The notes beneath the pieces are model-generated. The model saw only the letters and a program-made list of their open reading frames with translations. It was not told the origin of the DNA and did no database searches. Below, piece after piece: positions 1 to 14,689 of a DNA stretch of 64,000 bases (position 1 is the first letter of the stretch; each line of letters begins with the position of its first letter). A program made the position numbers and the translations under genes. Location: contig QCDI01000004.1 of NCBI GenBank assembly GCA_003280965.1, positions 1 to 64,000 of the forward strand, in the 5' to 3' direction. The stretch comes from Prochlorococcus sp. AG-355-B18. GTDB taxonomy: Bacteria; Cyanobacteriota; Cyanobacteriia; PCC-6307; Cyanobiaceae.

Positions 1-1
1 A

Positions 2-628
2 ACAGTCATTTCTGGAAGTAATAGTAATAAAAGTTGGATATGCGATAAAGGTCATAAATGGAATACATCTATATCTAATAGAGTGCTTCTTGGTAATAAA
101 TGCCCTTTTTGTTGTAACCAGAAAGTATGGACTGGATTCAATGATTTAAAAACTAAATTCCCTGAAATCGCAGCAGAAGCAGACGGTTGGGATCCATCAT
201 TAGTTGTTGCTGGAAGTAAAAAGAAATTCACTTGGAAGTGTCAAAAAGGACATCAATGGAAAGCAACTGCTGGTGGGAGAACAGGAAGAGGAAACGGATG
301 TCCTGTATGTGCTGAATATGGTTTTAATCGAGGAAAACCTGCTTGGTTTTATTTAATGGAAAGAGAAGGTGAACAGCAATTGGGAATAACAAATCATCTT
401 GAAGAAAGGATGAGTACACATTCAAAAAATGGATGGATGAAACTAGATTTAGTAGGACCTATTTCTGGTGAAAAGATTTTTGATACAGAGAGAAAATTAA
501 AACAATGGTTAAGAAGTGAAATTGGAGTAATTGAAGGAACTCAAGAAAATTGGTATACAAAAAATCTCAAAGTATCTTCTTTAGTTGAATTAAAAAAAGA
601 AAGTGGACTAGAAATATCAATTTTTTAA
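2..628 (+). CDS. Zinc-ribbon repeat (DUF4379-like) protein with C-terminal GIY-YIG-like domain, 5'-truncated by the window edge
   Basis: Frame is open from position 2 (TVISGSNSNKSWICDKGHKW...CPFC). Second repeat WKCQKGHQW...CPVC. C-terminus WFYLM...QQLGITNHLEERMSTH resembles GIY-YIG. Confidence 0.7.
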   Translation, partial: TVISGSNSNKSWICDKGHKWNTSISNRVLLGNKCPFCCNQKVWTGFNDLKTKFPEIAAEADGWDPSLVVAGSKKKFTWKCQKGHQWKATAGGRTGRGNGCPVCAEYGFNRGKPAWFYLMEREGEQQLGITNHLEERMSTHSKNGWMKLDLVGPISGEKIFDTERKLKQWLRSEIGVIEGTQENWYTKNLKVSSLVELKKESGLEISIF

Positions 629-639
629 TCAAAGATTTA

Positions 640-755
640 TTGTGTTTTTTAGGTATACCCATACGAAACAACGAAACCAGGAGAAATTCTGTAGTTTATA
701 GGTCTTTTATTGAATTAAACAACGTTGCATAGTAGAATAGACCTATAAACAACAC
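640..755. promoter_or_regulatory. Putative res/recombination site of the serine recombinase
   Basis: Inverted repeat tgtagtttataggtctttt (690-708) / aatagacctataaacaaca (736-754), 17/19 match with a perfect 12-bp core. Related half-sites at ~641-672, directly upstream of the resolvase. Confidence 0.6.
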
Positions 756-764
756 TTAAAGGAA

Positions 765-1310
765 ATGAAGGTAGGTTACGCAAGGGTAAGTTCAGTAGGG
801 CAAAACCTTCAATCACAATTAGATGCTCTGAAAGAATATAAAGTGGAACGTATTTTTTCTGAAAAAGTTTCAGCAACTTCAACCAAAGGTAGAGAGCAAC
901 TAAAAGAGATGCTTAATTTTGTTCGTGAAGGAGATGAAATTGTTTTTACCAGAACTGACAGAATTGCAAGAAGTGTTCTTGATCTTCAACTTATAGTTAA
1001 GGAATTAACTGAAAAAGGAGTTTCTTTAACTGCAACAGAGCAACCAATATCTACAAAAGATGCTACATCTAAATGTTTTCTTGATATGTTGTCTGTGTTT
1101 GCAGAATTTGAAACTAACTTGAGAAAAGAAAGGCAGTTGGATGGAATTAAAGCAAACCTTCATAAGTTCAAAGGCAGAGGGCAAACTATTGATATTGCAA
1201 AAATACAAAAATTAAAAGAAGAAGGAAAAGGTGCTACTGCTATTGCAAAAGAAATGGGTATTGATAGAACTTCTGTATATCGTCTTCTAAAAAGGGTGGA
1301 AGTTAAATGA
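765..1310 (+). CDS. Small serine recombinase (resolvase/invertase family) with C-terminal HTH
   Basis: GYARVSS catalytic motif, TRTDRIARS, and HTH GATAIAKEMGIDRTSVYRLL. Confidence 0.95.
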   Translation: MKVGYARVSSVGQNLQSQLDALKEYKVERIFSEKVSATSTKGREQLKEMLNFVREGDEIVFTRTDRIARSVLDLQLIVKELTEKGVSLTATEQPISTKDATSKCFLDMLSVFAEFETNLRKERQLDGIKANLHKFKGRGQTIDIAKIQKLKEEGKGATAIAKEMGIDRTSVYRLLKRVEVK

Positions 1311-1498
1311 AAAACTCTATACCTCCTTATTTTGTTCTTCACAAAAGCAAAGAAGTGATTTTTTATATTCCAAATGGGATGCCTACAACTATCGGTATTC
1401 CGACTTTCCTAAAAGATTTAGGATTTCCAGATTACAAAGGATTAGTAATGAAGAGCAAATGTATGTTTAAGAAATTACAAGATGAGGAATGTGAATAA
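1307..1498 (+). CDS. Small hypothetical protein (63 aa), translationally coupled to the resolvase
   Basis: ATGA overlap with the resolvase stop codon. Confidence 0.7.
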   Translation: MKNSIPPYFVLHKSKEVIFYIPNGMPTTIGIPTFLKDLGFPDYKGLVMKSKCMFKKLQDEECE

Positions 1499-1665
1499 TG
1501 AAAATCTATCTTTCTTATCAGGATCAGTTTGGTAGGTGGAGGCAGTATCAAACAAAAAATAATGAAAGAGATGCTTACAGAGTGGCAAAACTCAAAGCAG
1601 GGCAAATGAATAAGAGATTTCGACTAACTGATGATTCTGGAAGAGTGTTGGATATTATTAATTAA
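1498..1665 (+). CDS. Small basic hypothetical protein (55 aa, MKIYLSYQDQFGRWRQYQTK...VLDIIN), not in the ORF track
   Basis: TAATG overlap with the upstream ORF. Its 3' part recurs at 2637-2759 with mostly synonymous changes, supporting coding status. Confidence 0.75.
   Translation: MKIYLSYQDQFGRWRQYQTKNNERDAYRVAKLKAGQMNKRFRLTDDSGRVLDIIN
1543..1665 (+). repeat. 123-bp direct repeat, copy 1
   Basis: Near-identical to 2637-2759 (offset 1094). Confidence 0.95.
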
Positions 1666-2501
1666 AAAAAGTTTTTAAACATTCCTTTAACATCTTTTTC
1701 TAAATTTTGGAAATTAGGTTTTTCTACTGTTGAATCATCTGAATTATTGATATTCGTTGAATTTATATTATTTGATTCACTTAATTTATTATTTTCTACG
1801 AATTCATCATTTGACCATCTACCCTCTTCAATATATCCATTTGAATAAGTGTATTTCCCATATCCATCAAATTTGTTATTAACCCAATCTCCTTCATATT
1901 TATCACCATTAGCAAAATAATAAGTCCCTTTACCTGTTTTTTTGTCATTTACGTAATCTCCTACATATTTATCTCCATTTGCCCAAGTGTAAGTCCCTTT
2001 ACCATGTTTTTTATTATTTAAAGTATCACCAACATAACCAATTTTTGGTGCTGCATTTCTTTTGCTTTTTGTTCCTAATACTTTTCTTTTAAGTGTAGAA
2101 GTTCCACAATCATAAGCATTCGCACCAGCACAAGAATAATTTACAAGTTCATCACCCTCAATTGATAATTCAGATTGATTCCAACCAGTTCCAGCAATAG
2201 AATCAAACCATCCTTCTGATTGACCTATAAAACCTTTTAAAGTACCACCATCACTAATTTGCATATCATCTGAATCTTGAAAAAATACTTTTACTCTTTT
2301 ATCTCCAGTAATGCAATATCTTCTTGTTAAGGTTCCACTCCCCCATTCATTTGGTCCCCATTGATATTTAGCAGTTTCCCATGAACATCCACTGCTTTGT
2401 TTAAATTGGTTTTTAAGATTAGCATTCGCATCATTTTGCGATCCTAAAATCAACAAGGTCGCAGAAGTTAATCCACATAACAAATATTGCTTGATTTTCA
2501 T
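1662..2501 (-). CDS. Secreted MORN-repeat protein
   Basis: Signal-peptide-like N-terminus. YVGDTLNNKKHGKGTYTWANGDKYVGDYVNDKKTGKGTY... MORN repeats. Confidence 0.9.
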   Translation of the reverse strand: MKIKQYLLCGLTSATLLILGSQNDANANLKNQFKQSSGCSWETAKYQWGPNEWGSGTLTRRYCITGDKRVKVFFQDSDDMQISDGGTLKGFIGQSEGWFDSIAGTGWNQSELSIEGDELVNYSCAGANAYDCGTSTLKRKVLGTKSKRNAAPKIGYVGDTLNNKKHGKGTYTWANGDKYVGDYVNDKKTGKGTYYFANGDKYEGDWVNNKFDGYGKYTYSNGYIEEGRWSNDEFVENNKLSESNNINSTNINNSDDSTVEKPNFQNLEKDVKGMFKNFF

Positions 2502-2636
2502 TGCTTACTTAAAATTTCTAAAAACCTAGTTTACAAATATATTATTTTTGAAATATGTTAATCATTTTTTACAAAATGTTTACAAATTTTATGATTAGAT
2601 CCATATTTTTATTAAAAACAATTTGGTTTATTAATC

Positions 2637-2759
2637 CAATATCAAACCAAAAATAATGAAAGAGATGCTTACAGAGTGGCAAAACTCAAAGCAGGGCAAA
2701 TGAATAAGAGATTTCGACTAACTGATGATTCTGGAAGAGTTTTGGATCTGATTAACTGA
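2637..2759 (+). repeat. 123-bp direct repeat, copy 2 (orphan 3' fragment of the 55-aa gene)
   Basis: Encodes QYQTKNNERDAYRVAKLKAGQMNKRFRLTDDSGRVLDLIN* without the N-terminal part. Confidence 0.95.
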
Positions 2760-2988
2760 TAATTATTAATTTGTGTAAACCCTTATTCATTTTTGATATA
2801 AAACTCTTATAGATACTCTGTATCCGTTGATCCAAAGGGTTTAGGTTATTAGATTCTTAAAGATACTTTAAAGGGATTATTTAAGGAATTTTAGATTTTA
2901 AATGTATAAATAAATGTAGTTGAGCAATCTAGTTCAATCCTTTAATAGATAAGAAAAGACAGTTCACACCACTACAAACCGAGTAAAG

Positions 2989-3213
2989 ATGCAACAAGTT
3001 TTATACACCCAAAATGCCGTAAGGCAAACCACCGAAGGTGGTTTCCATAGAGTTCTTCGTAAGAATGTCTCATACAACAAATACGAGGATCATATTCAGA
3101 AGATTGAAAAAGAACTAATGAAAAAACACCGATTAGGATACTCTGCTTTAGTTAAATTCCTGATCCTGAGAGAGGGTCAGCAGCAGTTTGGCATTCCATT
3201 TGTATATTCATGA
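2989..3213 (+). CDS. Small hypothetical protein (74 aa), possibly DNA-binding
   Basis: ORF track. Basic helical C-terminus, coupled to the next ORF. Confidence 0.65.
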   Translation: MQQVLYTQNAVRQTTEGGFHRVLRKNVSYNKYEDHIQKIEKELMKKHRLGYSALVKFLILREGQQQFGIPFVYS

Positions 3214-3347
3214 TGATTAACTTAAATCTCAACAAAGTTGATGAAGCAAAGATGAGAGAAGTTATGAAAAAGCAAAGAAGACCATTTACTCAGACAGATG
3301 TTAAAAGGTTCTTTCTGGATCAGATCAATCGTGCTTATATCAGTTGA
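3210..3347 (+). CDS. Small hypothetical protein (45 aa, MMINLNLNKVDEAKMREVMKK...RAYIS), not in the ORF track
   Basis: ATGA overlap with the upstream ORF. Beta-helix-helix pattern reminiscent of a ribbon-helix-helix (inference). Confidence 0.6.
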   Translation: MMINLNLNKVDEAKMREVMKKQRRPFTQTDVKRFFLDQINRAYIS

Positions 3348-3503
3348 ATCTCGCAAACCCCAAAAATTTTAATCTTTGATCTACAAATTATGGAAGTAAG
3401 TTATTTTCATTTTAATTAAAAAGGTCAAGCAAAATTTCAATCTTATATTTTGTATTAATACAATATGAATTTTAATATATGATAAATTCAAATTATTGAT
3501 TTA

Positions 3504-4496
3504 ATGCTTGAAAAGAAAAATAATTTAAATAATAATTTTCTTACTTTTTCCAAAAAAATCATTTTTTCTGGAATCAGTAGCATATTTATTGCTTTACCAG
3601 TTCTTGCAGAAAGAAAACCAGATTTTGTAGTAAGTATAAAACAACTTTCTTATGAGTTCGAAAGAAATTCAATCGTTGCAGAAGATAAATACATGAACAA
3701 AGTAATTAAAACAAATGGAATAATAACAAAAATAGATGATACTTTATTAGGAGATCGTTGGGTTTCTGTAGGTATAAAAGACCCAGAATCTGATGATTTT
3801 GATTTTTTGCCTGCAACTATAAGTTGTCTTCATGTCAGATCTGAACCAATAATAAGAGAATTATATAAAGGTCAAAAAGTAGATATTACAGGAAAAATTA
3901 CGGAAGAAGAACTTGGACTTACTTTGAAATACTGTAGTTATGAAATAATTAGAACTTCAAAAGAATGGAAAGAAATATATTATAGAAAATGGAAAGAGAA
4001 AGATTTTAAAGGAGTTATTTATGCTGCAAGTAAATTCATAGAACTGAATCCAAAAGATAGTACTGCCCTAAATGATCGTGGCACTGCAAAAATTCAATTA
4101 GAAGATTATGAAGGAGCAATTAATGACTTAGATAAATCAATAAAACTGTATCCAAAAAGTGATGCTGCCTTTATTAATCGTAGTTATGCAAAATCTAGTT
4201 TAGGAGATTATGAAGGATCAATTGATGATTTAGATAAAGCAATAAAACTGAACCCAAAAAGTGGATACTTTTTTTTGCGTGGTGTAAAAAAATTTGTATT
4301 AGAAGATTATGAAGAAGCAATTAATGATTTTAATAAAGCAATAAAACTGAACCCAAAAGATGGTAAATCCTTTTATGGTCTTGGTAATGCAAAGAAGAAA
4401 TTAGGAGATCAAAAAGGTGCTTGTTCTGATTGGAGAAAAGCATCAGAGTTGGGAAATAAAAATGCTGTTAATCAAGTCAAAGATAAGTGTAATTAA
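3504..4496 (+). CDS. Secreted OB-fold (tRNA_anti-like) + TPR-repeat protein
   Basis: Signal-like segment ending LPVLA. LSYEFERNSIVAEDKYMNKVI OB-fold-like motif. Repeated DYEGAINDLDKxIKLNPK TPRs, also visible as ~100-bp nucleotide repeats. Confidence 0.85.
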   Translation: MLEKKNNLNNNFLTFSKKIIFSGISSIFIALPVLAERKPDFVVSIKQLSYEFERNSIVAEDKYMNKVIKTNGIITKIDDTLLGDRWVSVGIKDPESDDFDFLPATISCLHVRSEPIIRELYKGQKVDITGKITEEELGLTLKYCSYEIIRTSKEWKEIYYRKWKEKDFKGVIYAASKFIELNPKDSTALNDRGTAKIQLEDYEGAINDLDKSIKLYPKSDAAFINRSYAKSSLGDYEGSIDDLDKAIKLNPKSGYFFLRGVKKFVLEDYEEAINDFNKAIKLNPKDGKSFYGLGNAKKKLGDQKGACSDWRKASELGNKNAVNQVKDKCN

Positions 4497-4588
4497 AATC
4501 AAATGACTAACTTCCCCAATCTATAAACCTTTGAACACAAGAGCAAAAATTTTTCGGAGTAAAAAATCCCTCTCAGAAGGTAATTGTC

Positions 4589-5860
4589 TTAAATTTCTAA
4601 TCCGTTTTTGACTAATAAGTCACACCACTTATTCAGAAATTCTCTTCTTTCTTCAAGCATTAGTGACTTGTCATATGCCTGATCTACTTTGTTGTCTGGT
4701 AAATGCCCCATTTGCTTTTTGATTACTTCTTGAGGTGTCTTTAACAGATCAATTCCATTAGTTAAGGCAACACTTCTCCACCCGTGTGCTCTCAGTTTGT
4801 CTTTATAACCAAGATTACGAATGAAATTATTAGGTGCAGAAGGATCCAAATGAGGAAATCTGCTTTCCATTAGTGGAAGAAAGATATACTTTTCCCCGTT
4901 GTTGAAACGTTTCGCACGATCCAATAGTTTTTCCATTTGAGGAGTGATTGGTACGTGGTGTGGTTTATCGTCATTCCTTCCTTTGTTTCTTTTAAGTCCT
5001 GAAGTAGTTCCTTCAATGGTTAAGAGTTTCTTTTCCCAATCAATCCAATCCCATTCCAATCTTGTTAATGCCCCTGCTCTTAAAAAAGTCATAAGCATAA
5101 ACTTCGTTGCCATTTGTGCGAATGGGTGCGAATTACAGGAATTAAGAGATACTTTTTCTAAAAATTCTGGAACTTCTTCCCACTCAATATGAGGGTGGTG
5201 TGAAACTCTGTGGATATAAACTTTTCTGCCTTCGGAAGACGCAGGGTTTTGCCCCCGTGTCATTTTCCCTTTGAAGATTGCACAGTCAAAAACTTGTTTT
5301 AATAAATTTCGGCACCTTCTTGCAAGATCATAGTTTCTTCCCTTTCCAGCACTTTCAATTTTGGTAATTACTTCTTCGATTCTTTCTTTACCACCAGAAT
5401 CCCATTCCAATTCATTAATTGGAGTTGAACTATCAATATGACTTAAAACTTGATTGAGTTTCCGATCATATTCTCTGTAAGTGTTTTCTTTGATTCTTCC
5501 CTGACACTCATTTAAAAAATAATTGATTGCGTCTTGAAGATTCCAAGCAGATAGTTTCTCCTTATTCTTTTCTCTCTTGTAGTCAGAATAAGAAATTTCA
5601 TTATGGTGGCAGTAATCCTTTATTTCAAAGTATTTTTCTCTGGCATTTTTGAGGGATAATTCTCCCCCTTTATTTCCAAAAGTTCCTAACCAAACTTCTG
5701 TACCTTTGATTCTGCCTTTAAAATATTTTCTTCCACCCAATAGATTCCCTTTCTTACCCTTGTATTGTTTATCAACTACAAGGGTTAGTCCATTTCCTAA
5801 ACCTTTTTTGAAGGTTTTATCGGTAGGTTTCAGGGCAACGATCTGATTATGATTAAGCAT
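4589..5860 (-). CDS. Tyrosine integrase (P4-like, with N-terminal arm-binding domain)
   Basis: Catalytic residues R (TFLRAG), HxxR (HGWR), H (MGH) and Y (DQAY) are present. N-terminus LGNGLTLVV is typical of arm-binding domains. Confidence 0.95.
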   Translation of the reverse strand: MLNHNQIVALKPTDKTFKKGLGNGLTLVVDKQYKGKKGNLLGGRKYFKGRIKGTEVWLGTFGNKGGELSLKNAREKYFEIKDYCHHNEISYSDYKREKNKEKLSAWNLQDAINYFLNECQGRIKENTYREYDRKLNQVLSHIDSSTPINELEWDSGGKERIEEVITKIESAGKGRNYDLARRCRNLLKQVFDCAIFKGKMTRGQNPASSEGRKVYIHRVSHHPHIEWEEVPEFLEKVSLNSCNSHPFAQMATKFMLMTFLRAGALTRLEWDWIDWEKKLLTIEGTTSGLKRNKGRNDDKPHHVPITPQMEKLLDRAKRFNNGEKYIFLPLMESRFPHLDPSAPNNFIRNLGYKDKLRAHGWRSVALTNGIDLLKTPQEVIKKQMGHLPDNKVDQAYDKSLMLEERREFLNKWCDLLVKNGLEI

Positions 5861-6051
5861 TATTTTCTTAACTCCTTAGCAACGTCGTCAATAACTTCTG
5901 CATATCCCAAGAGATCATTTGCGATTTGTTTGATCTCTTGAAAATCAGGGTGTTCACTTCCAACACGTTCTCCCAAATCTTGAATTGCTTTTGCACTTGT
6001 ATAAAGGTTGCAACAGACGTCAATTAATTCTCTATCGAACATTATTTTCAC
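5860..6051 (-). CDS. Small hypothetical protein (63 aa), coupled to the integrase
   Basis: Stop/start overlap with the integrase at 5860. Confidence 0.65.
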   Translation of the reverse strand: MKIMFDRELIDVCCNLYTSAKAIQDLGERVGSEHPDFQEIKQIANDLLGYAEVIDDVAKELRK

Positions 6052-6325
6052 CCCCTTCTCTTGAAAGTTTTAATCCCGATTCAATCCCGTACCTTTCAGC
6101 ATTTGCGTCATACTCTTCAGGAGTAAGGTGTATTAACCATTCCTTGAAGGTTTTCGCATTTGGATTCATAGGGTGTGGATTATTAACTGATGCAGGTGCT
6201 GTGTAATACAAATGCCATAAGTCGTGTATTTGATCAATATCTGCAAGGAAATCTGCGTTACTAATGTATGCTGACCTTACGTAATGCCTTGCTTCTATTT
6301 CTTCTGCTTTATCTGAAAGTCTCAT
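6032..6325 (-). CDS. Hypothetical protein (97 aa)
   Basis: Stop/start overlap with AlpA at 6325. Same strand as the integrase. Confidence 0.7.
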   Translation of the reverse strand: MRLSDKAEEIEARHYVRSAYISNADFLADIDQIHDLWHLYYTAPASVNNPHPMNPNAKTFKEWLIHLTPEEYDANAERYGIESGLKLSREGGENNVR

Positions 6326-6528
6326 TACTTTTTACCCCCTTGTATTGAATAAGAACTTGGATCCTTTTGAAACTTCTCAATTTCATAGGAATTCCAGAAG
6401 ACAATTCTTCCCCATTTGATTCTTTGAGGAAATCTTCCTTCTTTTTCTCTTCTGTTGATTGTGGATTTAGAGAAATTAACCTTCTCTATAACTTGCGGAA
6501 ATCGCAAGAAAACTGATTCATTCTTCAT
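6325..6528 (-). CDS. AlpA-family excisionase / recombination directionality factor
   Basis: FLRFPQVIEKVNFSKSTINRREKEGRFPQRIKWGRIVFW matches the AlpA pattern. Confidence 0.9.
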   Translation of the reverse strand: MKNESVFLRFPQVIEKVNFSKSTINRREKEGRFPQRIKWGRIVFWNSYEIEKFQKDPSSYSIQGGKK

Positions 6529-6755
6529 TTTTACTATGTGAATAATATCAATACAGAACTAATATCTGACTGATTTTTATGTTTGAACTTTTACTTAAAT
6601 ATTGCAGAGAGTGTTGCTCTATTCACACCGTTTCAATATAAAGATATTATACTCCATAACTTCAGTCGTGTCAACCATAGTAGTCTATTATTAGCATTCA
6701 ATAACATTACATTTAGTGGGTGTAATTTACACCTCTTAATTAACAAATAAGACAT

Positions 6756-6779
6756 TAGGGGAGGAAATAGGGGAGGAAA
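6756..6779 (+). repeat. 12-bp tandem direct repeat (taggggaggaaa x2), putative integrase arm-type site
   Basis: Exact tandem repeat starting 103 bp before the end of att core 1. Confidence 0.7.
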
Positions 6780-6844
6780 TTACCTTATTTCTTATTCTTA
6801 TTGGTTCATATCAGTCCATAACTGCTCTCTTGGGTTCACTCTGA

Positions 6845-6859
6845 AATCCTCCCTCTCCG
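6845..6859 (+). other. att core remnant 1 (aatcctccctctccg), similar to a tRNA-Ser 3' end
   Basis: Resembles the ...AATCCC(t/c)(c/t)CTCTCCG 3' end of cyanobacterial tRNA-Ser. No full tRNA is present here. Confidence 0.65.
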
Positions 6860-6973
6860 TGATTATTAGGTGTCAGGAAGCGTTATAAAGACTCAGATTA
6901 TAGATATAGTCAGGTTTCTCTCTAATTCACAGAATCAGGGATAATTACACAGTAGCACGAAGATTCAATCTTT

Positions 6974-6997
6974 TAGGGGATAAAATAGGGGATAAAA
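6974..6997 (+). repeat. 12-bp tandem direct repeat (taggggataaaa x2), putative arm-type site
   Basis: Variant of 6756-6779 with the same 103-bp spacing to att core 2. Confidence 0.7.
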
Positions 6998-7065
6998 TTC
7001 CTACTATCCCATCAGTCAGAGTGTCATCCCTTCCTATATCTACTCACTCAGTCGCAGTCCTATTT

Positions 7066-7077
7066 CCTCTCTCTCCG
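7066..7077 (+). other. att core remnant 2 (cctctctctccg), tRNA-Ser 3' end-like; island/core boundary
   Basis: Matches the ...CCTCTCTCTCCG end of tRNA-Ser. A core gene ends ~35 bp downstream. Confidence 0.65.
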
Positions 7078-7113
7078 TAATTAATTAGGAAATTTATTTA
7101 ATTTTCTAAAATT

Positions 7114-7902
7114 TTAAAATTTGTAAAGATTAATATCTTCTAGGTCATATATAGAATTTAAAATCAAGTCAGCACCTGCATTTCTTAGATTTAGTTCGTA
7201 TGAAATACGTTCTTTTATTCGAGACTTTAAATGTAAATGAGGGGGAGCTAGCCCAATACTTATAAATTTCTGAGATGGTATTTCTTTTCTAGCGTTGATA
7301 ACTGTATTTATATCTGCAATAGTATCCCCTACATATGCAATGGGTATATTTGATGAGCCAAGTTTATCTCCAAGAATCTTTTTTGATAAGTAAATAAAAC
7401 CTTTAGGATCAGGCTTGTCAGGAGCATCTCCCATACATATCAGTGGGGGTGATTTTAGCCCAAGTCTTTTTTCTAAAACAAATTTTGCAGAAGCAGGTTC
7501 TGCACCACTCACAAAACCCCAAACTATTCCATTGCTTTGTAATAAATCAAAAAACTTTTTATCAACTAACAACTCTTCATTTGTTATAAAGCCAGACCAA
7601 TACTCACTATCTTTATGAGGATCTCCACCAAAGTAAAACTCTTCAAAACATTTAACTATTTCATCTCTTGAAGGTATTTGAAGTTTTAAGTTCTCTGTTT
7701 TTATAAATCTTTTTATGAGCTCTAAACTTAAATCCCAATCATTATTCCAGATTCCCTCATTTTTTGCACAATCAATATCTTTATAACTTGGCTCCCAGCC
7801 TGAAAATTTGAAAACTGTTTTTTTTAGTGAAAGCCTGTAACTATTTTCTACGCTACGTATTACACCATCTATATCAAATAAAATTAAACCAATATTTTTC
7901 AA
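7114..7902 (-). CDS. HAD-superfamily hydrolase (TIGR01548-like)
   Basis: FDIDGV motif I, KPDP, VGDTIAD. Confidence 0.9.
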   Translation of the reverse strand: MKNIGLILFDIDGVIRSVENSYRLSLKKTVFKFSGWEPSYKDIDCAKNEGIWNNDWDLSLELIKRFIKTENLKLQIPSRDEIVKCFEEFYFGGDPHKDSEYWSGFITNEELLVDKKFFDLLQSNGIVWGFVSGAEPASAKFVLEKRLGLKSPPLICMGDAPDKPDPKGFIYLSKKILGDKLGSSNIPIAYVGDTIADINTVINARKEIPSQKFISIGLAPPHLHLKSRIKERISYELNLRNAGADLILNSIYDLEDINLYKF

Positions 7903-7992
7903 TGAACTATTAATGCTTTTTATAAGAGATTAGTATTCTTATTAAAAAAAAGCAAAGAAAAATATTTTTAATATGTTGTGCATTATCTAACC

Positions 7993-9795
7993 TTAATTTT
8001 GTAAATATCCTCTGGGAGTGAGAAATATTTCGTCAACTAAGGTTGTTTGAGAATTGCCAATAATAATGATTGTTAACATATCAATCTCTTTAAAAGGAAT
8101 GGTGTTTAAAGTAAAAAATTGTTTGGTTTGATTTTCTCTCCCTACTTGTCTAGCTATTAAAACTGGAGTATCCCCACGCCTAGATTGTAAACATATATTT
8201 ATTACACTTTTTAGCTGCCAATTTCTTTCAATGGATTGAGGATTAAATAAAGCTATTACAAAGTCACCTAGAAGAGCTCCTTCAATTCTTTTTTCTATTA
8301 AAGACCATGGAGTTAATTTATCGCTTAAACTTACTGAACAAAAGTCATTCATTAACGGTGCTCCACTAATCGCAGCCGCTAATTGAACACTACTTATACC
8401 TGGATGTACTTCAAAATAAGGTCTATATTCTTTTTTAATTTTTTGAAGTAATTCTAAAAGTAAACCTGCCATGCCATAAAATCCAGATTCACCTGAAGAA
8501 ATTAAAGCCACTTTTATTCCTTCCTCAGCAAGTTTAATTGCTTTACTGCATCTTTCTTTTTCTTCAGTAAGTTTACTTTCAATTAAAACTTGGTCACTCC
8601 TTTTTAAGGATTTAATTAAATCTAAATACATTTTGTATCCGATCCAAACAGTACATCTTGAAAGTGCTTTTTTTGCATTACTTGTTAGGAAAGAGATATC
8701 ACCAGGCCCACTTCCAATAATATGTATTTCGCCATGGGTTGGATTATATTGATTTTTTGATTCTGCTATAGCGATAGTTACTGCACCAGATTGATTTTTA
8801 AAAATTCTTTTTTCTTCTAATAATTTTGATTCTTCTCCTGCTGCGAGTAAGCAAGATGCTTCCGCTACAGAAGGGGTGCCAATTTCCATTTCTACAACAC
8901 TGGAAGGATTTGGAACAATTATTGTTGAAAGATCTTCTTTATTAAAAAACTTTATAGGCAAGTTGTTTTCTTTAGCAAGTTCTAAAATTCCATTCTCATC
9001 TTCTTTAATGTTAACCGTTGCAAGTCCTGCAATTGAATACTTGGATAAATTTCTTGAATCCAATAAATTATTTAAAGAATTTGCTATTAATTCTTTGCAT
9101 GTATTTCTTTCGCATCCAATGCCAATCCATAATACGGGCGGGTGCCAAGTTGTTTCATGATTTTCGAATACACTCACATGAAATGTTGAATCTGGTTTTT
9201 CAATTTCTTTTTCATTAATTCCAGTAATAATCTCACCTGATTCTGAATTTTTCCATAAGCTATTGCCAGATAATTGTTTGCAAAATATTTCTTCGTTCTT
9301 AGCTTGTTTAATTACTAGTTTTGACCAATCTTTTATGTTGCCAGATCTTTCCCAACCCCATTGATTCCCAAATGAATCAAGATTTAAGAAGCTTTGATCA
9401 TTGGAATTATTAGTTTCTATTATTTCGCCACCAAGTAAGTTAGCAATTTGATATGCAATATTTTGCGTGTTTGACTGATGTAAGCCAATTAAAGGAACTA
9501 TCTTGGAACATTTGTTATCTATAACTATTACACCAGGATCTTGATCTTTAGAGGTTAAAAAAGAATTTATTATGCGAATTGAAGCAGCAATTGAGCCTAT
9601 AAAAATTATTAAATCTATCTCCTGCCATTTTTTAAGTAAGATTTCTCTAGGTTTTTGTAATGGAATAAGTTCATTTTCCTTTCCATCATCTTTTGAAGAA
9701 CCTGCAATATATATATCTTTGACAAATTCGGTTTTTTTAAGCCTTTTTAAAATTTCTTTTGAATTATTAGATAGACCTATAGCAATTCCTTTCAA
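7993..9795 (-). CDS. cobJ: Bifunctional CbiG / precorrin-3B C17-methyltransferase
   Basis: CbiG motifs (SKDQDPGVIVID, GIGCERN, TPSVAEAS) plus methyltransferase motifs IGSGPGD and TPRGY. Confidence 0.92.
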   Translation of the reverse strand: MKGIAIGLSNNSKEILKRLKKTEFVKDIYIAGSSKDDGKENELIPLQKPREILLKKWQEIDLIIFIGSIAASIRIINSFLTSKDQDPGVIVIDNKCSKIVPLIGLHQSNTQNIAYQIANLLGGEIIETNNSNDQSFLNLDSFGNQWGWERSGNIKDWSKLVIKQAKNEEIFCKQLSGNSLWKNSESGEIITGINEKEIEKPDSTFHVSVFENHETTWHPPVLWIGIGCERNTCKELIANSLNNLLDSRNLSKYSIAGLATVNIKEDENGILELAKENNLPIKFFNKEDLSTIIVPNPSSVVEMEIGTPSVAEASCLLAAGEESKLLEEKRIFKNQSGAVTIAIAESKNQYNPTHGEIHIIGSGPGDISFLTSNAKKALSRCTVWIGYKMYLDLIKSLKRSDQVLIESKLTEEKERCSKAIKLAEEGIKVALISSGESGFYGMAGLLLELLQKIKKEYRPYFEVHPGISSVQLAAAISGAPLMNDFCSVSLSDKLTPWSLIEKRIEGALLGDFVIALFNPQSIERNWQLKSVINICLQSRRGDTPVLIARQVGRENQTKQFFTLNTIPFKEIDMLTIIIIGNSQTTLVDEIFLTPRGYLQN

Positions 9796-10020
9796 ATTAG
9801 AAACTATTGATAGTTACGTTGAAATTATATCCTGTCGCTTGATTTAAAAAATTTTCTTTGAAATATAAAAAAAAATTTAAGAAATTTACATGAAATTTGA
9901 GTAAATATACTCATATTTATGTCATAGACTGGAATTTAACAAAATATTCATATAGTAACAATCATTAGAACATTTGTTACGTTAATGCATAACGAAAGAA
10001 TCTTTGCCTTATTATTTTTG

Positions 10021-10100
10021 AAACGAATATCTAAAGTTCTGAAGGATTCGTTTTCTTGAACATTATCATTAAAAATAAGTTCAAGAACCGATCAATCGGC
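10021..10100 (+). promoter_or_regulatory. Structured psaA leader (likely the psaA RNA motif)
   Basis: Three consecutive stems directly upstream of psaA: aaacgaat/attcgttt, ttcttgaac/gttcaagaa, ccgat/atcgg. Confidence 0.6.
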
Positions 10101-10129
10101 TTTAATGTCAATTATTTTCGAGGTGCTAG

Positions 10130-12433
10130 ATGACCATCAGCCCACCAGAAAGTGGAGAAAAAAACAAAAAAGTTTTGGAAGATCCTGTTAAGGCCGATCC
10201 AAGACCTATTGATTTTGCCAAATTAGATAAGCCAGGTTTCTGGTCAAGTAAATTATCTAAAGGTCCAAAAACTACAACTTGGATCTGGAATTTGCATGCT
10301 GATGCACATGATTTCGATGTGCATACAGGCGATGCTGAAGAAGCAACAAGAAAAATCTTTTCAGCTCATTTTGGACATCTTGCAGTCATCTTCATATGGA
10401 TGAGTGCTGCATTTTTCCATGGAGCAAGATTTTCCAATTATTCAGGTTGGTTAGCTGATCCAACTCATGTAAAACCAGGAGCTCAGCAAGTTTGGGCAAT
10501 TGTTGGTCAAGAAATGCTTAATGCTGATCTTGGCGCTAACTACAACGGAATTCAAATCAGTTCAGGAATATTCCACATGTGGCGAGCATGGGGAATAACT
10601 AATGAAAGTGAACTTATGGCTTTGGCAATAGGTGCTGTAGTAATGGCTGCACTTATGCTTCATGCTGGAATTTTTCATTATCACAAAGCAGCTCCAAAAA
10701 TGGAGTGGTTCCAAGATATTGAGTCCATGCTTAACCACCATATAGCTGGTTTGGTTGGACTAGGATCATTGGCATGGGCAGGCCATTGTATTCATATCGG
10801 AGCTCCTACTGCAGCACTTTTAGATGCAATTGATGCAGGCACTCCGCTTATTATTAATGGTAAAGAAATAGCAACTATTGCAGATATGCCTATGCCTCAC
10901 CAACTATGTGATCCACAAATTATAGGTCAAATTTTTCCTGGATTAGCTAGTGGTACAGGTAATTTCTTTAGTTTAAACTGGTTGGCTTTCTCAGATTTCC
11001 TTACTTTCAAAGGTGGACTTAACCCTGTTACGGGAAGCTTATGGATGACTGATATTTCACATCATCATTTAGCTTTTGGTGTTATTGCAATTATTGGTGG
11101 TCATATGTATAGAACCAATTACGGTATTGGTCATAGTATGAAAGAAATATTAGATTCACAGCAAGGAGACCCAATATTATTCCCTGCTCCTAAAGGTCAT
11201 CAAGGTCTTTTTGAGTTCATGGCAGAAAGTAGACATGCCCAGCTCGCGGTAAACCTAGCAATGCTTGGGTCAATAAGCATACTTGTTTCTCATCACATGT
11301 ATGCGATGCCTCCATATCCATATATAGCTACTGATTACATGACAGTTCTTGGATTATTTACTCATCACATGTGGATAGGTGGATTGTTCATAGTAGGAGC
11401 AGGTGCGCATGCTGGAATTGCAATGGTTAGAGATTACGATCCAGCAAAACATATTGATAATGTATTAGACAGAATTCTAAAGGCAAGAGACGCTTTAATC
11501 AGTCACTTGAACTGGGTATGTATGTGGTTAGGATTCCATAGTTTTGGACTTTATATTCACAACGATACTATGAGAGCTTTGGGTAGACCTCAAGATATGT
11601 TTAGTGATTCTGCAATCCAACTTCAACCAATTTTTGCTCAATGGGTACAGAGTATTCAATCATCTGCTGTTGGAACTTCTCTTTTAGCAGGTACTGCAGA
11701 AGCTTTACCTCACAAAGCTTTAAGTGAAGTTTTTAACGGTAGTTTAGTAGAAGTTGGTGGAAAGGTTGCTATAGCTCCAATTCCACTAGGGACAGCTGAT
11801 TTAATGATTCATCATATTCACGCTTTCCAAATCCACGTAACTGTTTTGATACTTCTCAAAGGGGTACTTTATGCAAGAAGTTCAAGGTTGATCCCTGACA
11901 AAGCTTCTTTAGGGTTTAGATTCCCTTGTGATGGTCCAGGAAGAGGTGGTACATGTCAAGTTTCTTCATGGGATCACGTGTTCTTGGCCCTGTTCTGGAT
12001 GTATAACTGTTTATCAATAGTTATTTTCCACTTCTCTTGGAAAATGCAGAGTGATGTTTGGGGACTTACTGGTGGCAATTTCGCACAAAGCTCCATTACT
12101 ATTAATGGTTGGTTAAGAGATTTCCTTTGGGCGCAAGCTTCTCAAGTATTAACAAGTTATGGTCAATCCATAAGTATGTATGGTTTGATGTTCTTAGGAG
12201 CTCACTTCATTTGGGCATTTAGTTTAATGTTCCTCTTCAGTGGACGCGGATATTGGCAAGAACTATTCGAATCAATTGTTTGGGCACACAACAAACTTAA
12301 AGTTGCTCCAACCATTCAACCAAGAGCTCTATCTATCACTCAGGGTAGAGCAGTAGGTGTAACACACTTCCTTGTCGGTGGTATTGCTACCACATGGGCT
12401 TTCTTCCATGCTCGCCTTTTCGGCCTGGGCTAA
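10130..12433 (+). CDS. psaA: Photosystem I P700 apoprotein A1
   Basis: [31 protein letters not shown]. Confidence 0.99.
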
Positions 12434-12460
12434 TTACCTGAACTTCACCTTTTTAATTCA

Positions 12461-14689
12461 ATGGCAACAAAATTTCCATCATTTAACCAGGGTCTAGCTC
12501 AGGACCCTACAACCCGACGAATATGGTACGGAATAGCTACCGCTCACGACTTTGAAAGTCATGACGGTATGACCGAGGAAAAGCTTTATCAGAAGCTTTT
12601 CTCTACACATTTTGGTCATCTAGCAATAATCGCTCTCTGGGTAGCTGGTAACTTATTTCATATTGCTTGGCAAGGTAACTTCGAGCAATTTGTACTTGAT
12701 CCAACTCACGTTCGTCCTATTGCTCATGCTATTTGGGATCCTCATTTTGGATCTGGTATCACAGAAGCAATGACACAAGCTGGTGCTAGTGGTCCAGTAA
12801 ATATAGCTTACTCAGGTCTCTACCATTGGTGGTACACAATTGGGATGAGAACTAATGAGCAACTCTTCCAAGCTTCAATATTTATGAGTATTTTGGCTTG
12901 TTGGACTCTATTTGCAGGTTGGTTACACTTACAGCCTAAATTTAGACCTTCTCTAGCTTGGTTTAAAAATGCAGAGTCAAGATTAAATCATCATTTAGCT
13001 GTCTTATTTGGTTTTAGTAGTATCGCCTGGACAGGTCATTTGGTTCATGTTGCTATACCTGAATCAAGAGGACAACATGTAGGTTGGGATAACTGGTTAA
13101 CAGTTCTTCCACATCCTGCAGGATTAGCTCCTTTCTTTACTTTAAACTGGGGTGCTTATGCCCAAAATCCTGATTCTTTAGATCAAGTATTTGGAACAGC
13201 TGAAGGAGCTGGAACAGCAATCTTTACTTTCTTAGGTGGTCTTCATCCCCAAAGTGAAGCATTATGGCTCACCGATATTGCGCATCATCATATCGCGATT
13301 GGTACAGTTTTTGTAATTGCGGGTCATATGTATAGAAATACTTTTGGTATTGGTCATAGCCTCAAAGAAATTACAGAAGCTCATAATACAAGACACCCTA
13401 ATGATCCTCATAAAGGTAGTTTCGGAATTAACCATGATGGAATATATGAAACTGTAAATAATTCATTACATTTCCAACTTGGACTAGCATTAGCATCACT
13501 TGGTGTAGCAACTTCTCTTGTAGCGCAACATATGGGTGCCCTTCCTTCTTACGCTTTTATTGCCAGGGACTACACCACACAATCTGCTTTATATAGTCAT
13601 CATCAGTACATAGCGATGTTCTTGATGGTTGGTGCATTTGCACACGGAGCCATTTTCTTTGTAAGAGATTACGATCCAGAATTAAATAAAGACAACGTAT
13701 TAGCAAGAGTTCTTGGAACAAAGGAAGCTTTGATAAGCCACCTTAGTTGGGTAACAATGTTGCTTGGCTTCCATACTCTAGGAATTTATGTTCATAATGA
13801 TGTTGTTGTAGCTTTTGGCAACCCTGAAAAGCAAATTCTAATTGAGCCAGTATTTGCCCAATTTGTCCAAGCTGCCCAGGGTAAGATGATGTATGGCTTT
13901 AACGCTTTATTATCCGATCCTACAAGTTCGGCAAGTCTCGCTGCTAATTCATTACCAGGCAATCATTACTGGATGGATTTGATCAATAGACAAGATGCAT
14001 TAAGTGCTTTCTTACCTATCGGTCCTGCAGATTTCTTAGTTCACCATGCCATCGCTTTAGGTCTTCATACAACCGCTTTAATTCTTATAAAAGGTGCACT
14101 TGATGCTAGAGGAACAAAATTAATTCCTGATAAGAAAGATCTAGGTTACGCATTCCCTTGCGATGGACCTGGACGTGGGGGCACTTGTGATAGTTCATCT
14201 TGGGACGCTATGTACCTAGCTATGTTCTGGGCATTAAATTTACTAGCATGGGTAACTTTCTACTGGCATTGGAAACACCTAGCAATATGGCAGGGTAATG
14301 TAGCACAATTTAATGAATCAGGAACATATCTAATGGGTTGGTTCAGAGATTATCTCTGGTTAAACTCAGCTCAACTTATTAACGGATATAATCCATTTGG
14401 AGTAAATTCTTTATCTCCTTGGGCTTGGATGTTCCTATTCGGTCATTTGGTTTGGGCTACTGGTTTCATGTTCCTAATATCATGGCGTGGTTACTGGCAA
14501 GAATTAATTGAAACATTAGTTTGGGCACATCAGCGCACTCCTATAGCTAATCTTGTTGGATGGAGAGATAAGCCAGTTGCACTCTCAATTGTTCAAGCTA
14601 GATTAGTTGGATTAGCACATTTCACGATTGGAAACATTCTTACATTCGGTGCATTTGTTATTGCATCAACTTCAGGTAAGTTTGGTTAA
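12461..14689 (+). CDS. psaB: Photosystem I P700 apoprotein A2
   Basis: [35 protein letters not shown]. Confidence 0.99.

Follow-up and report, generated by a model that had tools for sequence, protein, structure and literature searches.

Why would a mobile element of a marine cyanobacterium carry not a single copy of a short, degenerate DNA word that is frequent in the genome of its host? The question is raised by a 64,000-nucleotide window of Prochlorococcus sp. AG-355-B18 (G000:C4:1-64000), which starts at a contig end and whose first 6,878 nucleotides belong to an integrative element. An earlier note, made from the letters of this window, had tallied about 150 GC dinucleotides in that tract by hand and found none in the context VGCB (V, any base except T; B, any base except A). 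A direct count returns the same picture, with 0 VGCB among 154 GC dinucleotides. The note treated the absence as a property of one element; instead it is a graded trait of a whole element family, and it is tied to the methylation motifs of T4-like cyanophages.

Loss of GC-centred words and selection against them

Across the whole 1.58-Mb genome, 38.7% of all GCs stand in VGCB, close to the share of about 40% that the note had assumed, and because of this share the probability of finding 0 in 154 is about 1.7e-33. The first site past the tract is indeed the AGCG at 6879 named in the note, followed in the core by sites at 7246, 7250 and 7291. No core stretch is equally depleted: the next longest VGCB-free gap measures 703 bp within the window and 1126 bp within the genome. 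Codon bias, already judged unlikely in the note on account of both strands and intergenic DNA being affected, is ruled out together with base composition by codon-shuffle nulls. Shuffling synonymous codons with the tract's own codon usage yielded 36.2±4.2 VGCB and never fewer than 20 in 2000 runs, 52 sites are expected if host codon usage is applied to the open reading frames (ORFs) of the tract, and the rule is kept by all 11 ORFs, on both strands, as well as by 17 non-coding GCs. Contigs from four public marine metagenome runs cover 25-30 of the 30 bins of positions 1-7400 at 88-100% identity, and the tract is therefore natural DNA; this coverage, together with the depleted metagenomic integrase genes described below, rules out an assembly artefact.

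The depletion around GC is thus real, but the exact word proposed in the note required correction. Only about one CGCG is expected in 1-6878, and three CGCG occur in 72.8 kb (1556 GCs) of 21 pooled pieces from relatives, which were picked for being VGCY-free. Since CGCG is tolerated in these VGCY-free pieces, the motif missing from the tract is VGCY/RGCB, and the strict VGCB rule was dropped.

The comparison of diverged copies supports selection against a GC-centred site. The integrase gene of the window and its orthologue in another genome of the genus (G143) are 85% identical and differ at 190 nucleotides, and both contain 0 VGCB. If 190 substitutions are placed randomly, 9.4 VGCB are created and none of 2000 runs remains without any, so that the complete lack of new sites indicates ongoing purifying selection.

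Spread and grades of the depletion among relatives

The same genome carries a second element, inserted at tRNA-Asn (G000:C7:42897-56090; locus L027), which is RGCY-free over 13,193 bp and nearly ACGT-free, retains RGCG/CGCY, and bears Mrr-type, T5orf172 and helicase-restriction endonuclease genes as cargo. Within the genus, 23 of 285 genomes contain relatives of the integrase. The majority of those inspected have no RGCY, or hardly any, as far as the border of the element; G124, G272 and G173 are among the exceptions. In metagenomes, the best 80 of 144 integrase genes found include 24 without VGCY/RGCB, a further 18 without RGCY, 17 with one or two RGCY and 21 with three to six, at an expectation of 4.5-16.5; host tiles of integrase-gene size are without sites in 16 of 1236 cases, those of both elements included. 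In other genera of the family, 22 integrase genes were counted: RGCY is missing from 17 of them and occurs once in two, and three are undepleted (expected 12-24). These gene-only counts, like a geometric split, are free of the circularity of our pooled set of 17 elements, whose borders were set from the RGCY profile and which therefore serves other motifs only.

Beyond the absence of RGCY, the elements form grades. In the G085 element the retained GCs are almost all YGCR, and the G154 element (G154:C13; L047 1217-6062) comprises 4845 bp without any GC dinucleotide (GpC). Both its integrase (426 aa) and its resolvase (193 aa) contain no alanine, as does the integrase of the G210 element, which has almost no GpC (G210:C3; L048 ~5400-13300). 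Several further proteins of these two GpC-poor elements are alanine-free, and the elements also lack GATC, CATG, GTAC and CCGG. At the other end stands a leaky class in which the remaining RGCY mostly follow a G (54%, compared with 17% in the host). The RGCY words tolerated by this class (metagenomic loci L109-L160) are mostly GAGCTC, GAGCCC, GAGCTA and TAGCTA, contexts that would imply flank-dependent recognition.

As a separate observation, the third-longest RGCY-free stretch of the AG-355-B18 genome, near tmRNA, coincides with a cassette of EcoRII-C, a cytosine-5 (C5) methylase and Vsr (G000:C3:141654-143679; L066 11685-14103), which suggests that the cassette may have arrived on a site-free element.

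T4-like cyanophages and the explanations weighed

The words that the elements lack are also scarce in T4-like cyanophages. In 6/6 genome pieces of such phages the observed-to-expected ratio (O/E) is 0.15-0.52 for AGCT and 0.13-0.39 for AGCC, against a comparison value of 1.3 in the host, whose core is enriched in RGCY (1.3-1.4). The corresponding ratios are 1.94/1.12 in the podovirus P-SSP7, which is undepleted except for GGCC, and 1.76/1.39 in the siphovirus MED4-117. Four near-whole T4-like cyanophage genomes agree with the depletion, and the T4-like SAR11 phage HTVC008M is likewise depleted in RGCY. CCGG reaches only 0-2 counts in the four genomes; it is low in the elements too, and MED4-117 also lacks it. 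The k-mer bias of the elements correlates with that of T4-like phages at rho 0.61 and with that of the podovirus and siphovirus at rho 0.29. These words correspond to known viral marks: RGCY was the commonest viral motif in marine metagenome-assembled genomes (MAGs), present in nine viral MAGs and, as N4-methylcytosine (m4C), common to Myoviridae-like genomes, the viral MAG V32 carried m4C in VGCY at 350 of 545 sites, and RGCY-marked viral MAGs hold homologues of GGCC-type m4C methylases (Hiraoka 2022, PMC8919816).

Two observations on the phage genomes may be added. In P-SSM4 (L187-L196) and Syn9 (L197-L206), a region of small genes at ~35-55 kb has 0-3 RGCY per 5 kb, vs 5-25 elsewhere. One Prochlorococcus assembly includes a whole T4-like cyanophage genome of 189 kb (G109:C3; L177-L186), from which GCGC and CCGG are wholly absent and in which TGCA is low (0.26).

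A methylase that could set such marks belongs to the core of these phages. A D12-type gene annotated 'dam' lies in the clamp-loader region of 5/5 T4-like cyanophages, and its sole match in the PDB (cut-off E up to 0.1) is 7M6B (E 6.5e-43), a chain that we identified from the fit of cloning primer and ORF length as M.CbeI, the D12-annotated GG(m4C)C methylase (PMC3425538). Matches to the family occur in 421 phage records, nearly all of cyanophages, some of which already name the gene alpha-group or cytosine-specific. The family is absent from the hosts: a homologue is present in 1/285 host genomes, there on a 189-kb phage contig, and in 0/5 element-bearing genomes of other genera. The cyanophage 'dam' is most likely an alpha-class m4C methylase that marks RGCY/VGCY, a motif relaxed relative to that of M.CbeI/DmtB, with which it shares the D12 annotation and a DPPY motif (PMC3425538); unlike CbeI, it has no adjacent endonuclease. 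A single-sequence fold of the phage methylase (predicted local distance difference test, pLDDT, 32) was not used.

We therefore lean, by a little, towards the reading that the elements avoid a myophage nuclease which cuts unmethylated host DNA. Selection would continue to keep the element lineage free of RGCY-type sites, and of the wider VGCY in the clade of the window, with lytic T4-like cyanophages (Kyanoviridae) as the selecting agent. The core 'dam' most likely marks RGCY/VGCY of the phage as 'self', and a phage nuclease most likely cuts the unmarked sites during the early destruction of the host chromosome, so that an element residing in the unmethylated chromosome would survive and leave the dying cell only if it is site-free. 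Looser specificity or star activity in some phages could have produced the series from RGCY-free through VGCY-free and only-YGCR-left to GpC-free elements. T4 itself degrades host DNA by endonucleases II and IV and is protected by its modified cytosine, and the logic proposed here is alike, with a modified-cytosine self mark and a nuclease directed against unmodified host DNA. Cyanomyoviruses destroy host DNA within hours (PMC7852597); unlike T4, they are described as lacking denA, ndd and denB (PMC2984593). The best candidate for their nuclease is a stand-alone GIY-YIG protein of 151 aa (phrog_447), encoded 1.8-3.6 kb past nrdB in three phages and present in about 400 cyanophage records. Its predicted structure (pLDDT 93) resembles I-TevI (Z 7.9) and PD-T4-3 (Z 6.9) more than T4 EndoII (Z 4.5); sequence and profile searches against the PDB gave nothing significant, and the best Foldseek match had E 0.02.

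Several points weigh against this reading. A scan of 59 shared phage ORFs yielded this candidate but no established cognate nuclease, and no conserved nuclease neighbour stands beside the phage methylase. The GIY-YIG protein occurs in enteric phages as well, and searches of the RGCY-depleted phages S-PM2 and HTVC008M did not find it; it is therefore a candidate only. HTVC008M also has no methylase match, and in S-PM2 (NC_006820) the M.CbeI-like methylase is in two pieces (94104-94930); a second, distant methylase homologue lies at 1-810 of the same genome. RGCY is methylated at only 17-69% in the viral MAGs, a small share if the mark is to shield a phage from its own nuclease, and most marine methyltransferases were taken as orphans by the same authors (PMC8919816). 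The VGCY mark comes from one viral MAG (V32), which is not tied here to a lineage or host. The loss of all GpC exceeds any reported phage motif, and a phage could therefore not protect all of its own GCs. GGWCC and CCWGG are depleted in the elements of Prochlorococcus and not in those of other genera, a pattern perhaps due to EcoRII-type systems of the hosts, one of which is present in AG-355-B18. Finally, scans of IMG/VR with the window integrase or its close alignment returned no match, so that packaging of the element by myophages would have to be supposed; an alignment of the GpC-poor clade found seven distant loci.

Accessory restriction-modification (R-M) does exist in phages, as one viral MAG holds an RsaI-like enzyme near a GTAC methylase and additional methylase genes lie next to endonuclease-like ORFs in several phages. 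A cluster in P-SSM4 (L081 40590-44739) comprises an annotated restriction endonuclease, two methylases and a helicase, and different endonuclease-like ORFs adjoin methylases in other T4-like cyanophages.

The most durable of the alternatives, which we regard as unlikely, is that the elements avoid becoming methylated: the phage methylase would tag RGCY while the element replicates in an infected cell, and the tagged element would then be cut by modification-dependent nucleases, either of its next host or of its own, or be disturbed in its protein-DNA steps. This needs no phage nuclease and suits orphan methylases, the avoided words equal the methylase motifs exactly (RGCY, VGCY), the C7 element holds an Mrr-type domain, and other viral m4C and N6-methyladenine motifs are low in Prochlorococcus elements (GGWCC 0.17, CCWGG 0.21, CCGG 0.22, CATG 0.58). 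However, McrC, the one Type IV family surveyed, is present in only 4/285 genomes, most scanned elements are without a recognisable nuclease, and such rare hosts seem a weak force for the loss of all alanine codons.

Classical restriction evasion, the first of three models offered in the note, is improbable as well. It supposes RGCY-, AGCT- or GGCC-type R-M systems in picocyanobacteria or other marine bacteria, against which phages gain methylases and elements lose sites. Small mobile elements do tune their sequence to Type II R-M (Shaw 2023, PMC10359461), the GpC-free elements also lack the four further palindromes listed above, and both the EcoRII/Dcm-like cassette of this host and the avoidance of GGCC by P-SSP7 are in keeping with it. 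The model is weakened by the enrichment of RGCY in the host core, by the retention of AGCT and AGCC in the podovirus and the siphovirus, and by the loss of non-palindromic AGCC, AGCG and GGCG as completely as of palindromes. Moreover, GGCC-type m4C methylases are found in none of the 284 genomes other than that with the phage contig, and the D12 family in 7/285. The methylases found in AG-355-B18 itself are the EcoRII/Dcm-like cassette with Vsr and, in islands, one enzyme of the D12 class and one of N6/N4 type; the search for C5 and beta-class methylases covered this genome only. The host C5 methylase was rejected as a cause, being EcoRII/Dcm-like with Vsr, and when it was compared with phage proteins, no cyanophage was among the 60 matches listed of 1324.

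That the elements attack the DNA of phage or host with a nuclease of their own that cuts at GC sites, and are immune by having no sites, another model of the note, we consider very improbable. The window ORF at 2-628 has an endonuclease-like domain, and T5orf172, Mrr or R-M genes are present in some elements, but no nuclease family is common to the elements scanned: nuclease or R-M domains occur in 3/22 loci and DUF4379 in 1/22 (101 proteins of 100 aa or more, integrases excluded), eight tested unknown proteins of GpC-poor elements gave no family, and a GC-cutting enzyme left unguarded would break down the chromosome of the host. The remaining model of the note, a phage enzyme, fits best. Mutational erosion, in which methylated cytosines mutate and sites decay without selection, hardly comes into consideration for the elements: AGTT (1.24) and GGTT (1.5) are modestly raised in VGCY-free pieces relative to the host (1.0 and 1.12), and erosion could account for the partial depletion in phages, but for elements it is already largely refuted by exact zeros across long tracts, and it is opposed by diverged orthologues that gain no sites, by the replacement of conserved alanine residues and by the lack of a C5 methylase in 5/5 T4-like cyanophages.

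The element, its known counterparts and its meaning

Features of the window element and its border (strand and support where available)
Feature	Position	Strand	Support
Tract free of VGCY/RGCB, the part of an integrative element that is visible after truncation at the contig start	1..6878		
5'-truncated protein, DUF4379 treble-clef repeats and endonuclease-like C-terminus	2..628	+	PF14311 E 2.8e-21; phrog_681 endonuclease E 5.6e-26
Small serine recombinase	765..1310	+	PF00239 E 2.5e-35
Two small ORFs (63 and 55 aa), no confident family	1307..1665	+	
MORN-repeat cargo protein	1662..2501	-	PF02493 E 1.4e-18
74-aa ORF, no family	2989..3213	+	
Cargo protein, OB-fold (tRNA_anti-like) and TPR	3504..4496	+	
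Tyrosine integrase, 423 aa, 0 VGCB	4589..5860	-	PF00589
Two small ORFs (63 and 97 aa), no family	5860..6325	-	
AlpA-type excisionase/regulator	6325..6528	-	PF05930 E 2.8e-9
Tandem arm-type repeat, probable integrase arm site (putative function)	6755..6781	+	
att core 1, tRNA-Ser 3' end; border of the depleted tract	6847..6859	+	matches tRNA-Ser(GCT) end on C8
att core 2, second tRNA-Ser 3' remnant	7065..7077	+	

Judged by its predicted genes, the window element is tycheposon-like in build, with a tRNA-targeting tyrosine integrase and a partial-tRNA att site, an excisionase and a small serine recombinase. A metagenome contig passes from tRNA sequence into position 6848, and att core 2 is probably an older insertion scar. 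Further copies of the arm repeat lie at 6973-6999 and beside tRNA-Ser(GCT) on contig C8. The first 625 nucleotides of C8 adjoin this tRNA gene, share the arm repeat and similar zinc-finger repeats and contain 14 GCs and 0 VGCB; they are probably the other end of the element. Of the genes expected in a PICI-like phage satellite, namely capsid, terminase and primase genes, none is seen in the 11 ORFs of the tract, which does not include the middle of the element, and an Rfam scan of 1-12000 gave merely five matches, all sub-threshold. A 157-nt direct repeat (87%; 1512-1668 and 2606-2762) flanks the MORN gene and looks like a duplicated end of the 55-aa ORF, which suggests a cargo insertion at this gene.

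Tycheposons of Prochlorococcus have the same combination of tyrosine integrase, excisionase, serine recombinase, cargo and partial-tRNA att sites (Hackl et al., bioRxiv 10.1101/2020.12.28.424599); the window element targets tRNA-Ser(GCT), which is outside the seven tRNAs named there, and the main text of that preprint does not mention restriction, methyl or nuclease and hence no site purge. A parallel in specificity lies with chloroviruses. These degrade host DNA with CviJI-class enzymes, of which CviJI* spares YGCR, much as the G085 element retains almost only YGCR; the CviJI virus infects eukaryotic algae and has a C5 methylase, unlike the five cyanophages tested. R.CviJI and CviJI* are virus-encoded enzymes with the same specificity series, RGCY and GC (PMC3681635). 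The avoidance of restriction sites is itself already known from plasmids and phages, where small mobile DNA likewise adapts by composition and not by a methylase of its own (PMC10359461). The loss described here differs from those cases in that it is absolute, extends from a degenerate 4-mer down to the GC dinucleotide, alters the amino-acid make-up of the proteins and follows an enzyme family carried by phages, not by hosts. The available portions of Eppley 2022 (PMC9618062) and of an EcoSal review (PMC12707154) hold no statement of such avoidance, and in the literature outside subscription papers and preprint supplements no description of these elements being purged of RGCY, VGCY or GpC came to light, nor of a link to myophage m4C.

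We see an even chance that an undescribed, m4C-sensitive phage nuclease with a GC-centred site destroys host DNA, and that the elements have rewritten their whole sequence, even giving up alanine, to escape it. The way in which T4-like cyanophages, without denA and denB, degrade host DNA has been singled out as undescribed (PMC2984593), and the study of viral methylomes left undecided what m4C marks do in marine myoviruses (PMC8919816); one testable sequence, RGCY/VGCY, together with an assayable gene, serves both questions. The results could further be used for a k-mer detector of element borders in Prochlorococcus and Synechococcus, for the re-annotation of cyanophage 'dam' and as a source of naturally alanine-free recombinases. 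For the biology of these elements, our data suggest that they may move by outlasting the chromosome during lysis. If the elements do escape such a phage nuclease, the missing words of each element would be a readout of the phage lineage that it exploits, and would also show which host DNA outlives lysis and becomes available for horizontal transfer.

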